From Escherichia coli (GTDB taxonomy: Bacteria; Pseudomonadota; Gammaproteobacteria; Enterobacterales; Enterobacteriaceae): a stretch of DNA of 64,000 nucleotides. Numbering within the stretch: position 1 is the first letter of the stretch; each line of letters starts with the position of its first letter. The stretch lies in the NCBI RefSeq assembly GCF_045037415.1, contig NZ_CP173438.1; one strand, written 5' to 3'. The position numbers were made by a program. Shown here piece after piece: positions 27,001 to 33,000 of the stretch.

Positions 27001-30000
27001 CACTACCATCAGGTAATAGGCAGGCATCATCAGATTCTGCGAGCTTTCGACCAGCCAGGCCGCCAGTGTTGGCGTCAGACCGGCAACCAGCACCGAAATA
27101 TTAAATGCCGCCGCCAGCGCGCTGTATCGGATATGCGTCGGGAACATCGCTGGCAAGGTAGAAGCCATAACGCCCGTAAAGCAGTTAAGGATCACCGCCA
27201 GCATCAGTAACCCGGCAAAAATCAGGCCGATGACGTTACTGTTAATCAGAATAAACGCCGGGATCGCCAACACAAACAGTGCAACACTACCAAGTAGCAC
27301 AAACGGACGACGGCCAAAACGGTCACTCAGCAAGCCCATCACCGGCTGGACAAACAGCATACCGATCATAATGGCGATAATAATCAGCACCCCGTGGTCT
27401 TCGGAGTAATGCAGGTTATGCGACAAATAACTCGGCATATAGGTCAGCAACATGTAGTAAGTCACGTTGGTGGCAATTACCAGACCAATACATGTCAACA
27501 GGCTGCGCCAGTGTTTGGTGGCAATCTCTTTAAACGAGACTTTCGGGCCATCCTGCAAACCTTCGCGGTCGCCCTGTTCCAGTTTATCGACATGCTGCTG
27601 GAACGCCGGAGTCTCTTCCAGCGCATGGCGCAGGTAAAGCCCGATAATCCCTAACGGCAGAGCGATAAAGAACGGAATACGCCAGCCCCAATCGAGGAAG
27701 TTCTCTTCGCCGACAATGGTCGAAATTAACACCACTACGCCAGCTCCCAGCACAAACCCGGCAATAGAACCAAAGTCCAGCCAGCTGCCCATAAAGCCAC
27801 GTTTACGGTCAGGGGAGTATTCCGCAACAAATATTGACGCCCCGGTATATTCACCGCCGACCGAGAAACCTTGTGCCATCTTACAGATCAACAGCAGAAT
27901 CGGTGCCCAAATACCAATCGTGTCGTAGGACGGTATTAAGCCAATACAGAACGTACTGATCGACATAATCACAATAGTGATAGCGAGGATCTTCTGGCGA
28001 CCATATTTATCGCCCAACATACCAAAGAAGAGCCCGCCAAGCGGTCGAATCAGAAAGGGAACGGAGAAAGTGGCGAGTGCAGCAACCATCTGCACGCTGG
28101 GGTCAGCCCCCGGGAAAAAAACTTTACCTAATGCGTAAGCAACAAAACCATAAACACCAAAATCGAACCATTCCATTGCATTACCCAGTGATGCTGCGGT
28201 AATGGCTTTACGCAGTTTACCATCATCAATAATGGTGACATCACGAAGGGTAATCGGTTTTACTTTTTTCCTTTTCAGCATAGCTTTCCTCGCAGAGTTG
28301 GCCCATTTCCGCAAACGCCAGAAAAATCAGCGCGACGGCCGCAAAAGGGGAGCGGGAATTGCAGGATGCAATCTCTGTAACAAGCGTAGCGGGTTTGCTT
28401 ACACCCTCCGGTTAAGGAATGTACAATCAAACCAGTTGACGCCTGAATTGGGCAGTTAATGACCTTTTTACCCTACCAGTGTTTAAATTTGTGATCAACT
28501 TCACACATGCATTTCGTTTAGGACTCATTGGTGTAACTGATTATTTACACCAAATTTACAGAGAAGATTTCCTCGACCATTGCCCCCGCCAGACGCTGCG
28601 CTGAACAGAGTCGTGGCATCCCCAGTGCGACAGTTCGCCAGCGTTGGGTCACTGACCAGCAAACGGGTTGTTTATCTGCCGTAGACCACTTTCCCAGCCA
28701 ACTTAAAAAATCAGCATGATCCCCGCCCGTCGAAACGGTCGAAGAGGCAAACCACTGATGGTAATAGTGACGCGTGGTCGGGGCCGCATTGATACTCTCT
28801 GCCAAATGTTGTGTCGCTTTCACGCGCAAATCACCTAGCAACAACGCCACCGCTTGCGGGCTTCCCAGACGGCAGGCATCGCCAAATGCACCCCAGCGCA
28901 ACTCTTCGAGAACGATAAAACAGCGCCCAGGCAACGACCAGGCGTTATACGCCCCAGCACGCCAGCGGGTAAAAATTTGCTCGCTCTGTTCACCCGCCTG
29001 CACCAATAGGCCTCGTTGCGTTAACGCCTTTTCCTTCCAGCGACAACGGGCTGAAAACCACTCATACAAGGCGACAATTTGCTGGGGGAGCTCCGGGAAA
29101 GCAGAGTGCTGGCGGTGATCCATTTTTTGCAGCAGCGCCAGATGCTGCGCGATCTGCGTCAGCGCCAGATGACCGGGATCCAGCATCGACGCCAGTTTTT
29201 CCACCAATGTCAGACGCAGGCTAAGCGGCGCATTTAACATGCCGCCGTTCGTCCATGTCTGAAGCTGCACGCGCGCAAGAAGTTCCTGCATCAGTCGTTC
29301 ACGAAACTGCTGCTGATGGGCTTGTGGAAGGCGGGCATCATCGCCCTGCGCCAGATCCACTAAAAAGCGCGGATGAACCGACTCCAGCACGCGACCGGGG
29401 CCGTCCAGTAACGTCTTGGTCAATATCGTTCTGCCGTGAAAAGTGTTTGAATATCATCGCGTAACAGCTGAGCGTCGGTGTAAATCCAGCCGTGAGTCAT
29501 CACAGTCTGCTGCAATTGCTGTTGCATCAGCCTGACCACCGATTCATTTTGTTGACGCAGAGCCATACTTTCGCGTAAACGCGTCTGTAATTCCGTCAAA
29601 CATGAAGCGAACTCAGCGAAAAAAGTATTCATGCCTGCCGTAACAGATTCATCGACCTGCTCTGCCATAACTTTAGCCATTTGTTGGCAATAAAGATCGA
29701 CTTCTGCGCTTAATGCTCGTTGCAACACACTGTAATCAACCGTCTCTGTCGGGAATTTCTCATTTCCCCGTCCCCAGTCGGGCTGATTCAACCAGCGCGA
29801 AAAAATCTCACGCACAACGCCTAAACGCGTGCTCTGCTCGTCCGTTGCTTCCTGGCGCGAAATGACTTCACTGAACAGCTGGCGGGTGTTGAAGTGGGGA
29901 ACTACGCCGTGAAAAACAGGAAAATGAAACCCAGGACGAAACCCAGACTCACTCAATTCCATTTTGACTTGTTGCTCAATGGGGCGAATAACATCGGTTA

Positions 30001-33000
30001 ACACCCGGCAAAGGGTGGACTCAAGCTCGGCAAAGCGCAGCGTAAAGTCGCGACTGATGGTGTTCTGCGCCGTCTGTAACAGTGTCTCACAGCGGGTACG
30101 CATCTCACTTAACGACTCCGAATTATCCTGAAACAACGCGGCTAACTGCGCATTCACCGCATCTTGCTGTTGACGCAGAAAGTGGTTGGCGGAGGTCAGG
30201 GCCAACTCGATTTCATGTTTAATCTCGCCGCTCACCTGCGCCTGATTGAGTTGCAATAGCTGCAAACTTTCTTCGACCTGATGGATATTTTGCCGCAATT
30301 GTTCACAAGCGACGTTTAACCCGTGCGCACGAAAATCCAGGTATTCCCGCGCCTGCTGCGCGTAATTCAACAGTTTATGCGCGGCAGATCGCAGAGCATA
30401 CAACGAGGCGTTAGCGTAAGCGGCATGAAGCAACGCCTGAATTGGCTGGGCGAACAGCGAATCTTCCCACAACTGATCGGCAGCATGGCGAATATGTTCG
30501 AGGTCCGCCAGATCGGCATGACGCCAGCGCCTGCCGAGCGCGGCATGGGCAAAATCTTCCACCCAGCGTTGTTGCTCTGGCGCGGGTAACTTACCGTTGT
30601 TGGCTAACTCATGGCGCGCCCGATTCGCCAGGTAGCCCCACATCGACGACACCGGAAATATCTGCTGTGGCGTAATACAGCCTTTCATCAGCGTTCCGGA
30701 AATCAGTGCCCGCACCTGGTCGGCGTCGTCACTGTTACGATCCTGTTGATCGAACTTATTGACCAGCACATACAACGGCACCGATTGCCCCACCGCCAAA
30801 ATTGCCTCACGGACCTCTTCATCGGAGATCGATTTCAGTTGCGTATAATCCAGCACCGCCAGTACCGCCGAGGCGCGTGCCAGCTGCTGGTTAAGCATTT
30901 TTTGCAGATGCGGTTGCCCGGCTTCATTTGGCCCGGGGGTATCCAGTAACGTCAACTGACCGGGATAACTCTCCAGCCCCGCCAGATGGACAAACTCCAC
31001 TTCAATCACGGGAATATGCTCAATGGCGGCGTAAGCAGAAAAAGGAAAATCGACGTCCAGCGCCTTCGCCAGTCGCACCAAATCATTCAAACTTTTCAGA
31101 CAATGAAAAATAGGTTGAGCACCCAGATAATATTTTTCGAAAGCGATGCCATTTTCGATCCGCTGCATAAGCGCACGCATATCTTTATCTATTTCCAGCA
31201 CATCGGTCAGATGCTTAATATCGCAATCACGCAGGCGCTGTTGTAATTGTTGAATTAAATGGTCGATTGGCGCGACATGTGAAAAATGCAGTACCGGTTC
31301 TTTTTGCCCGGGCGTATGGCGAATAAGCGTTGGCAGCGCAGTCATTGGGCGATTGCGATTAGGCAGAACCTCCGTACCAACAATGGCATTAATGGTGGTT
31401 GATTTCCCTGCTTTCATGGTACCGACAATCGCCAGCACCATTTCCAGCCGGGAAATTTTACGCAACTCATTATTCAGCATCGCGTGACGTTCGGCGATAT
31501 TAGGCTGACTCCAGGGTAAAGCCAGTTGTGGCGCATCGTCTCCGGGTACAGAGAGAGGTATTTTTTCCAGTAACTGCAACTGTTGTCGGGAAAGCTGTAA
31601 CAGGCGTTCAGCCTCCTGACTTAACTCATACAGGGTCTGTGTGTACATAGAATATTCTTCCTTAAAGCAAATTTTATTACTTTTATTTAGCCAGATTGTT
31701 TTTGAGTTCTGTTTTCGGCTTTTATAATTACTGCAGGAAATAATTTTATATTTAGCGTGTTGTTTTTTTATTAGAATAAATAACATCTCCCAATACGTTT
31801 AAAACGTCAGAAAGATAAAAACATCATGTGAATTAAAAAAAGAACGAGTAGAGCATTAACCTTATCTTAAATAATAAATGGAGGCAAAAAGATTATTTTC
31901 TTTTTGCGTTTCCTTTCAAATGAAAACGATCGTCATCTAAAATCAGCAGTACCCCCGACAAACTCAGGGATTTTGTGTATAATTGCGGCCTTTTTCGGCA
32001 ATCTGCCGTTTTTTGGCGCTTTTGCCCTGCTGACTTTTGAGGAAATCCACATGTCATTACCACACTGCCCAAAATGCAACTCCGAATACACCTACGAAGA
32101 TAACGGCATGTACATCTGCCCGGAATGTGCCTACGAATGGAACGACGCAGAACCTGCACAGGAAAGCGACGAGCTGATCGTTAAAGATGCTAACGGCAAT
32201 CTGCTGGCTGACGGCGACAGCGTTACCATCATTAAAGATCTGAAAGTGAAAGGTAGCTCTTCGATGCTGAAAATTGGCACCAAAGTAAAAAACATCCGCC
32301 TGGTTGAAGGCGACCATAACATCGATTGCAAAATCGACGGTTTTGGTCCGATGAAACTGAAGTCTGAGTTTGTGAAAAAGAACTGATTGTATTGTGATCG
32401 GTAGGCCGGATAAGGCGCTCGCGCCGCATCCGGCAACGGTGGCGACTGCCTGATGCGACGCTGACCGCGTCTTATCAGGCTTCCCTCTCATCTGTATAAA
32501 TTTCGAACTACACTTAACTGGCTTCTCTTAACTGAGGTCACCATCATGCCGTTAAGTCCCTACCTCTCTTTTGCCGGTAACTGTTCCGACGCGATTGCCT
32601 ATTATCAACGTACGTTGGGCGCGGAACTGCTCTATAAAATCAGCTTCGGCGAAATGCCAAAATCAACGCAGGACAGCGCCGAGAACTGCCCTTCCGGAAT
32701 GCAATTTCCCGATACCGCCATCGCCCACGCCAATGTGCGCATTGCAGGAAGCGACATCATGATGAGCGATGCTATACCGTCAGGAAAAGCCAGCTACTCC
32801 GGCTTTACGCTGGTGCTCGATTCTCAACAGGTGGAAGAAGGAAAACGCTGGTTTGATAACCTTGCCGCCAACGGAAAAATCGAAATGGCCTGGCAGGAAA
32901 CGTTCTGGGCGCATGGCTTTGGCAAAGTCACCGATAAATTTGGCGTACCGTGGATGATTAATGTCATCAAACAACAGCCAACGCAATAACCCGCCGGGAG

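Follow-up and report, generated by a model that had tools for sequence, protein, structure and literature searches.

The rdcA (crfC)-rdcB (yjcZ) pair of an Escherichia coli chromosome: a dynamin-like GTPase gene, its overlapping partner gene and a predicted internal sigma-28 promoter

The closest described systems and the identity of the locus

The locus analysed here is the gene pair crfC (also called yjdA) and yjcZ in a stretch of 64,000 nucleotides (nt) of an Escherichia coli chromosome (NCBI RefSeq assembly GCF_045037415.1, contig NZ_CP173438.1), the whole of which is called the window below. The closest described system is the same pair in strain K-12, whose products YjdA and YjcZ were renamed RdcA and RdcB by Pfiffer et al. 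in 2019 (PMC6510439); the current RefSeq names of the K-12 genes are likewise rdcA and rdcB. RdcA was shown to oligomerise and, on two-hybrid evidence, to bind RdcB as well as the MASE1 domain of DgcE (PMC6510439). Knockouts of rdcA, rdcB and dgcE have the same, non-additive phenotype for cyclic di-GMP (c-di-GMP), CsgD and curli (PMC6510439). The hydrolysis-dead variant T103D is inactive and the variant K82A, which does not bind GTP, is active (PMC6510439), which indicates that nucleotide-free RdcA is the activator and GTP the inhibitor. As reported by Ozaki 2013 and Pfiffer 2019, the K-12 protein binds GTP with low affinity, hydrolyses it and self-assembles (PMC6510439, PMC6374313). In a genome-wide screen published in 2026, transposon mutants of rdcA and rdcB were enriched among cells low in c-di-GMP (PMC13031359). 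The view of an earlier note on this DNA, made from the sequence alone, that the pair is still poorly characterised is thus outdated, since RdcA and RdcB have been described as activators of DgcE from 2019 onwards (PMC6510439, PMC13031359).

The operon of the window agrees with that of K-12 (b4109-b4110) in the lengths of the two products, 742 and 292 amino acids (aa), in the TTGA junction between the genes, in the position of an internal FliA promoter, and in having yjdM upstream and proP downstream. The two operons are 97.5% identical in nucleotide sequence and differ by 16 + 12 amino-acid substitutions. Both coding sequences and their overlap are annotated identically by RefSeq/PGAP (the NCBI Prokaryotic Genome Annotation Pipeline) in a genome that is 100% identical. 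At a query coverage of at least 80%, the locus was found in 5,399 of the 5,426 complete E. coli genomes, the other 27 being below this coverage. In strain E19 an IS26 insertion lies inside the region; in strain AVS0747 the match is limited to the last 62 bases, in yjdM, and the pair is apparently lost. We consider that the locus is very probably the E. coli core operon rdcA(crfC/yjdA)-rdcB(yjcZ), in which the mechanism of DgcE activation would be that of K-12. The pair, its names and its role with DgcE are already known, and there is nothing new in its identity.

The 742-aa protein matched the Pfam family Dynamin_N (PF00350) with 67 bits (gathering cutoff, 27) over aa 72-277, and the NCBIfam equivalog NF007368, 'clamp-binding protein CrfC', with 1,588 bits (cutoff, 1,146) over positions 1-742 of 742. 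All four G motifs are intact, namely G1 GTMKAGKS at 76-83 (with K82), G2 T103, G3 DTPG at 236-239 and G4 NKFD at 297-300, and in an alignment of 25 homologues their residues vary little or not at all. An AlphaFold model built from 25 homologues (predicted local distance difference test score, pLDDT, 78; predicted template modelling score, pTM, 0.58) shows three very long helices after the G domain, at aa 400-505, 513-565 and 639-741. When the model was searched against the Protein Data Bank (PDB) with Foldseek, the top 50 matches were all dynamin-superfamily proteins; the best was the bacterial dynamin-like protein (BDLP) entry 2j69 (E=7e-12, probability 1.00), followed by SynDLP, IniA, mitofusins, Cj-DLP1/2 and LeoA. 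A profile search of the PDB placed BDLP 2j68 first (E=3e-7). The earlier note had proposed that crfC encodes a P-loop GTPase of the bacterial dynamin-like family, a proposal that depended on a dynamin-like fold, and such a fold was detected by both the domain search and Foldseek. As judged from the model, the protein is a dynamin-like GTPase of the BDLP/mitofusin type, with an N-terminal G domain and a long helical stalk, and GTPase activity is predicted for it. With TM-scores (template modelling scores) of only 0.3-0.5 for the matches, the arrangement of the domains in CrfC is tentative.

Solved structures are available for BDLP of Nostoc (2j68/2j69), SynDLP (7zw6), IniA (6j72), the Campylobacter proteins DLP1/DLP2 (5owv) and LeoA (4aur). 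CrfC resembles these proteins in its dynamin-type G domain and in its long helical neck or trunk, they are its best matches by profile and by fold, and, like many BDLPs, it has a partner gene in its operon. On the other hand, its sequence identity to them is only 12-16%, and the low TM-scores are due to the domain arrangement. With DLP2, LeoBC and IniC the partner is itself a second dynamin, which YjcZ is not. No hydrophobic paddle was found in CrfC: neither a membrane paddle nor a hydrophobic tip is evident in the alignment of 25 homologues, a hydrophobic patch at the stalk tip being present only in the accessory paralogues described below. K-12 CrfC/RdcA has been described as soluble (PMC6510439, PMC6374313), and it was reported to act on a signalling enzyme and not on membranes (PMC6510439). 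The CrfC of Escherichia (742 aa) does not have a segment of 35-42 aa, at the predicted tip of the stalk, that is present in other genera (about 784 aa); the segment would fall between aa 531 and 532, at about 30055-30057.

YjcZ matched Pfam PF13990 with 476.7 bits (cutoff, 27) over aa 21-287, covering all 272 positions of the family model, and its AlphaFold model is all-alpha (pLDDT 92, pTM 0.91). The domain search gave no GTPase domain in YjcZ, and the structure searches gave no solved structural relative. The description of the two genes as a dynamin-like pair, as in the earlier note, is therefore to be restricted to crfC, because yjcZ itself, having no GTPase domain, is not dynamin-like.

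With each species represented by a single genome, a yjcZ homologue was found at 80 loci, every one of them from Enterobacteriaceae. The genera include Escherichia, Citrobacter, Kosakonia, Enterobacter, Leclercia, Lelliottia and Phytobacter, and further Pluralibacter, Yokenella, Trabulsiella, Superficieibacter, Atlantibacter and Franconibacter. A crfC homologue lies directly upstream of yjcZ in every one of the 80 loci, a pairing far beyond chance. The divergent upstream neighbour is yjdM in 78 of them.

Junction, start codon and promoters of the pair

The stop codon of crfC and the start codon of yjcZ share four nucleotides, TTGA (Table 1), as the earlier note had read from the sequence, and the overlap proved to be conserved among the species-level loci. 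Of the 80 loci, 72 read ATGA at the junction and 3, all from Escherichia, read TTGA, which makes 75 with a 4-nt overlap; of the remaining five, four have TAAnnATG and one overlaps by 1 nt. The codon TTG at the yjcZ start (29421-29423) occurs in Escherichia only (all three loci, the window and K-12), and the orthologous position holds ATG in the other 77 loci. From this distribution, the weak TTG start is a derived state specific to Escherichia. The lineage with the TTG start also bears the clamp-binding motif discussed below and the shortened CrfC.

The N-terminus of YjcZ, MTxxLLDGPGR, is kept from residue 1 across 14 genera, and this conservation validates the annotated start. No Shine-Dalgarno sequence is visible before the TTG. 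Since the TTG lies inside the crfC stop and has no Shine-Dalgarno sequence ahead, we infer that translation of yjcZ on the long mRNA is coupled to that of crfC by termination and reinitiation.

To the long mRNA is added a putative intragenic promoter in the 3' end of crfC. When the entire window was scanned blind for the sigma-28 (FliA) consensus, with up to 3 mismatches allowed, two matches were obtained, and the sole one in the locus was TAAAGTTATGGCAGAGCAGGTCGATGAA, which has 3 mismatches to TAAAGTTT-N11-GCCGATAA. Its position is that of the K-12 site '(yjdA)yjcZ', from which it differs by 1 nt; this single base change converts the extended -35 of the promoter from TAAAGTTC in K-12 to TAAAGTTA in the window, and also L661 to M. 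In K-12, the intragenic FliA promoter was identified by chromatin immunoprecipitation sequencing (ChIP-seq) and RNA sequencing (RNA-seq), with yjcZ falling from 52 to 1 in the delta-fliA strain (PMC4183435), and it was later confirmed by a lacZ fusion (bioRxiv 188474). The motif TAAAG-N14-GTCGAT is present in 65 of 81 aligned sequences. The conservation of third codon positions over the motif is 0.757, compared with a gene mean of 0.611 (standard deviation 0.073), and ranks 19th among 735 windows of the gene. This raised conservation argues for selection beyond the coding constraint. By analogy with K-12, yjcZ has two expression routes, the long mRNA and the internal sigma-28 promoter, the activity of the latter being predicted here. 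The earlier note had described crfC and yjcZ as a conserved two-gene unit; this stands as far as the direct adjacency in all 80 loci is concerned, but the unit is not a simple one-promoter unit, because the FliA promoter drives yjcZ separately (PMC4183435).

The signals upstream of crfC are less clear. The start codon of crfC is preceded by a Shine-Dalgarno sequence lying in a block, ATTTGCGTTAAGGAA, that is conserved across genera. A FliA promoter upstream of crfC was considered and rejected, as no match with 3 or fewer mismatches was found there; a GCCGAAAA box is present, but the position of the -35 element reads TCCTGCAG. This box, GCCGAAA(A) at 31695-31715, resembles a sigma-28 -10 element, precedes the crfC ATG by about 55 nt and is kept in Escherichia, Citrobacter and Kosakonia. 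A FliA promoter formerly predicted upstream of yjdA is wrong according to Fitzgerald et al. (PMC4183435), and the box is probably that 'incorrectly predicted' promoter of the literature. Scans of 28200-32200 for sigma-70 promoters and terminators gave counts no higher than those in shuffled sequence, and no sigma-70 promoter or terminator is therefore claimed. In a study of SlyA overexpression, crfC-yjcZ was among the transcripts raised 2.6-fold (PMC5797941).

Surroundings of the pair

The window is a piece of E. coli chromosome in reversed orientation relative to K-12. The features of the locus are collected in Table 1.

Table 1. Positions of the pair, its signals and its neighbours in the window
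Feature	Position	Strand	Description and basis
pmrB	25502-26602	+	neighbour
proP	26779-28281	-	neighbour; start (~28281) 263 bp downstream of yjcZ stop
rdcB = yjcZ	28545-29423	-	292-aa open reading frame (ORF), TTG start, TAA/TGA-type stop at 28545-28547; Pfam PF13990
TTGA overlap	29420-29423	-	crfC TGA + yjcZ TTG; ...CGA TAT TGA / TTG ACC AAG
rdcA = crfC = yjdA	29420-31648	-	742-aa ORF, ATG start, TGA stop; Dynamin_N, NCBIfam NF007368
Putative intragenic FliA (sigma-28) promoter	29649-29675	-	in crfC 3' end, 224 nt upstream of yjcZ start
Dynamin-type G domain (~aa 69-350)	30599-31444	-	motif search, Pfam envelope
Beta-clamp-binding motif 41-QLALP-45 of CrfC	31514-31528	-	motif search; PMC6374313
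crfC-yjdM divergent spacer	31649-32050	.	402 bp, AT-rich; promoter region of both genes
Shine-Dalgarno AAGGAAG	31657-31663	-	8 nt upstream of crfC ATG

The spacer upstream of crfC is, as the earlier note had it, AT-rich and about 400 bp long: its GC content is 32.1%, compared with 50.8% for the whole window, and falls to 25.5% in the lowest 200-nt window. The AT-richness is kept across 76 loci, with a median GC of 39% in the spacer and 54% in the gene. Beyond it follow yjdM, yjdN and phnCD, all on the plus strand. A longer ORF for crfC, of 788 aa from an ATG at 31786 (46 additional codons, 31649-31786), was rejected because the extension is AT-rich, lying within the spacer, and because the orthologues of all genera begin with MYTQT or MHTQT; the 46 codons are probably not translated.

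On the other side, the pair adjoins proP, again in agreement with the earlier note. Downstream of yjcZ and on the same strand, proP was found in 69 of the 80 loci, the other 11 having no proP within the stored flank; in Escherichia and in a few further genera it is the direct neighbour of yjcZ, and elsewhere it is about 1.7 kb away. The additional 1.7 kb was considered as a place for a patatin gene, a candidate that was rejected, since it instead encodes, on the opposite strand, a membrane protein of 336 aa (for example, locus L007, 6922-7932, minus strand). The gene for this protein is at the same place in Citrobacter, Enterobacter, Kosakonia and others, and is missing in Escherichia, Trabulsiella, Yokenella and Superficieibacter, in which yjcZ abuts proP.

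An Rfam search of 26500-33500 gave no match within the crfC-yjcZ pair or the upstream spacer. Two matches were obtained outside them. STnc630 (182 bits) matched 26571-26736 on the minus strand, just 3' of proP, where it overlaps the pmrR ORF of RefSeq (about 26578-26667, minus strand) and, on the opposite strand, the 3' end of pmrB. The second match, between yjdM and yjdN at 32404-32481 (89 bits), was to naRNA4 (CssrE), a nucleoid-associated RNA derived from the repetitive extragenic palindromic (REP) element; it scores on both strands, as expected of a palindromic REP element.

Role of the pair and the wider YjcZ family

By analogy with K-12, RdcB would be a small all-alpha partner that binds RdcA, and the RdcA/RdcB complex would activate the diguanylate cyclase DgcE by docking on its MASE1 domain. 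GTP-bound RdcA would be inactive, and the drop in GTP at entry into stationary phase would leave nucleotide-free RdcA, which would turn DgcE on; c-di-GMP, CsgD, curli and cellulose would then rise, and motility would be slowed via YcgR. Translation of yjcZ on the long mRNA would depend on termination and reinitiation at TTGA, and the conserved sigma-28 promoter within crfC would give a separate yjcZ transcript timed with the flagellar regulon. In addition, RdcA would bind the beta clamp through 41-QLALP-45, the role for which it is called CrfC, with an effect on sister-fork colocalisation; this clamp binding is, from the distribution of the motif, most likely a lineage-specific second function.

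Several points weigh against this account. The DgcE mechanism is assumed to hold here, being carried over from K-12 at 97.5% nucleotide identity, and the translational coupling of crfC and yjcZ is presumed from the sequence. In RdcB, no catalytic motif could be recognised, and no structural relative has been solved. The promoter of crfC was not located, since sigma-70-like matches in the spacer occur at the rate of shuffled sequence and the GCCGAAAA box is without a sigma-28 -35 element. Moreover, the literatures on CrfC and on RdcA differ on which role is primary (PMC6510439).

A different origin for the pair is suggested by the distant members of the YjcZ family. An exhaustive profile search gave 261 family representatives (clustered at 50% identity), and ten distant members were examined for their context. 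In all 8 of the distant members with informative downstream sequence, an overlapping gene for a patatin-like phospholipase follows. Wherever upstream sequence exists, a CrfC-like Dynamin_N protein, near-identical to CrfC in the stretch from G1 to G2, is encoded there, with the exception of one fusion. This fusion, of 532 aa, joins a complete JukA (DUF3944 and Cbp3-like; PADLOC E=8e-74) to a YjcZ domain (locus L084, 6001-8630, from ENA ERZ19489111 contig_1), and its gene is also followed by an overlapping patatin gene. JukA is the sensor of the jumbo-phage defence system Juk, and is combined with variable effectors that include patatin and a coiled-coil domain described there as unknown (Juk paper). 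Around the distant members are genes for NERD helicases, bpMoxR/VWA and HepT/MNT, as well as an antirestriction/CP4-44 island. One member, 32% identical, has a dynamin partner and no patatin.

A module of the same composition is found as an accessory element in E. coli itself, in which three overlapping genes encode a dynamin-family protein of 794 aa, an RdcB-family protein of 301 aa and a patatin-like phospholipase of 356 aa. This triad was found in 2,444 of the 5,426 complete E. coli genomes (45%), and it is not in this window. In strain UTI89 it is encoded by IIE09_RS10730-10740 (NZ_CP064825.1, 2208742-2213095), beside antirestriction and CP4-44-type genes. The patatin has GGGxxG, GxSxG (GASIG) and DGG all intact, so that its catalytic dyad is intact. 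Compared with the core pair, the GTPase of the triad is about 33% identical, with the stretch GTMKAGKSTTINAIVG...LPNRNRPMT unchanged between the two GTPases, and its YjcZ-family protein is about 31% identical; the genes overlap at stop and start as in the core. The triad differs from the core in its third overlapping gene, the patatin with the GxSxG/DGG dyad, in its location in a variable island, and in the stalk tip of the GTPase, where the insert is still longer and carries a hydrophobic or aromatic patch (AFAFFHDIFG, GFFTFF). From its composition, this insert is a possible membrane paddle. No paper describing the accessory dynamin-RdcB-patatin triad was found in the literature.

These contexts lend support, short of proof, to the possibility that the core pair is a domesticated derivative, without the patatin, of a mobile module composed of a dynamin, a YjcZ-like adaptor and a patatin, whose ancestral task would have been attack on or remodelling of membranes or lipids, possibly against phages; YjcZ-type adaptors would then link a sensor or motor with an effector, the patatin elsewhere and DgcE in E. 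coli. We regard this as conceivable but somewhat improbable. In its favour are the regular succession of dynamin, YjcZ and patatin genes, with a near-identical G1-G2 stretch in the dynamin, the fusion of one YjcZ domain to a jumbo-phage sensor, the nature of the neighbouring genes, and the wide occurrence in E. coli of an accessory copy with an intact patatin dyad. On the other side, the distant contexts are few (n=8 to 10), and the direction of patatin loss or gain is inferred from breadth of distribution alone. The triad matched no defence model of PADLOC 2.0 beyond a weak similarity to LeoBC/LeoA, and its RdcB-like protein found no relative in viral contigs. The core pair has a demonstrated housekeeping role in signalling (PMC6510439, PMC13031359). 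In the window itself, CrfC gave only weak matches in PADLOC 2.0, including Eleos (LeoBC, E=3.9e-6, 24 bits; LeoA, 5e-5), and YjcZ none. The likeness of YjcZ to Juk is by domain association only, through the single distant YjcZ-JukA fusion; the YjcZ of the window is without a JukA part, and neither JukA nor JukB is encoded nearby. In its general form, that YjcZ/RdcB proteins serve as adaptors connecting a sensor or GTPase (dynamin or JukA) with an effector, and that core rdcAB is a domesticated, patatin-less offshoot of an undescribed membrane-targeting, possibly anti-phage module carried by about 45% of E. coli, the proposal is tentative and on the unlikely side.

The pair might instead be primarily a device for chromosome partition, in which CrfC oligomers on the beta clamps of nascent DNA hold sister forks together and YjcZ is an incidental neighbour; we think this unlikely. 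CrfC has been reported to bind the clamp through QLALP and to have a role in sister-fork colocalisation (PMC6374313), the motif 41-QLALP-45 is present in the protein of the window, anucleate cells in delta-crfC and Q41A strains and foci at the nucleoid poles have been described along with the clamp binding (PMC6374313), and the NCBI family bears the name 'clamp-binding protein CrfC'. In the alignment of 25 homologues, however, QLALP is limited to E. coli: other Escherichia have PLTLP, with P in place of Q41, and other genera PLHFS, in orthologues that are otherwise 57-68% identical. The motif sits in a variable linker modelled with low confidence (pLDDT <50, aa 35-43), and according to Pfiffer et al. 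clamp binding is independent of GTP and growth of a delta-yjdA strain is normal (PMC6510439). Nor does yjcZ, always coupled to crfC, behave as an incidental neighbour. The restriction of the motif to E. coli, together with the universal coupling of yjcZ, speaks for the RdcA/RdcB view of what the pair primarily does. From these distributions we favour control of DgcE together with YjcZ as the ancestral shared role, to which clamp binding would have been a lineage-specific addition.

That two ORFs are adjacent by chance, or that yjcZ is misannotated (for example, with a wrong TTG start), as the rarity of TTG as a start and the missing Shine-Dalgarno sequence might suggest, is virtually out of the question and already refuted by the conservation of YjcZ from residue 1 in 14 genera, the ATG that 77 of the 80 loci have as the orthologous codon, the junction survey, the span of PF13990 over aa 21-287, the 100% co-occurrence with crfC and the published RdcA-RdcB interaction (PMC6510439).

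Under the RdcA/RdcB reading, the two genes should be kept together in annotation, as rdcA (crfC) and rdcB, with the internal sigma-28 promoter marked, because through this promoter rdcB would be expressible without rdcA. The pair would constitute a GTP-sensing input to DgcE, the main source of c-di-GMP for the biofilm matrix of E. coli. The links of the YjcZ family to patatin and JukA are the sole untrodden lead from this locus, and they may offer a testable clue to the role of RdcB.

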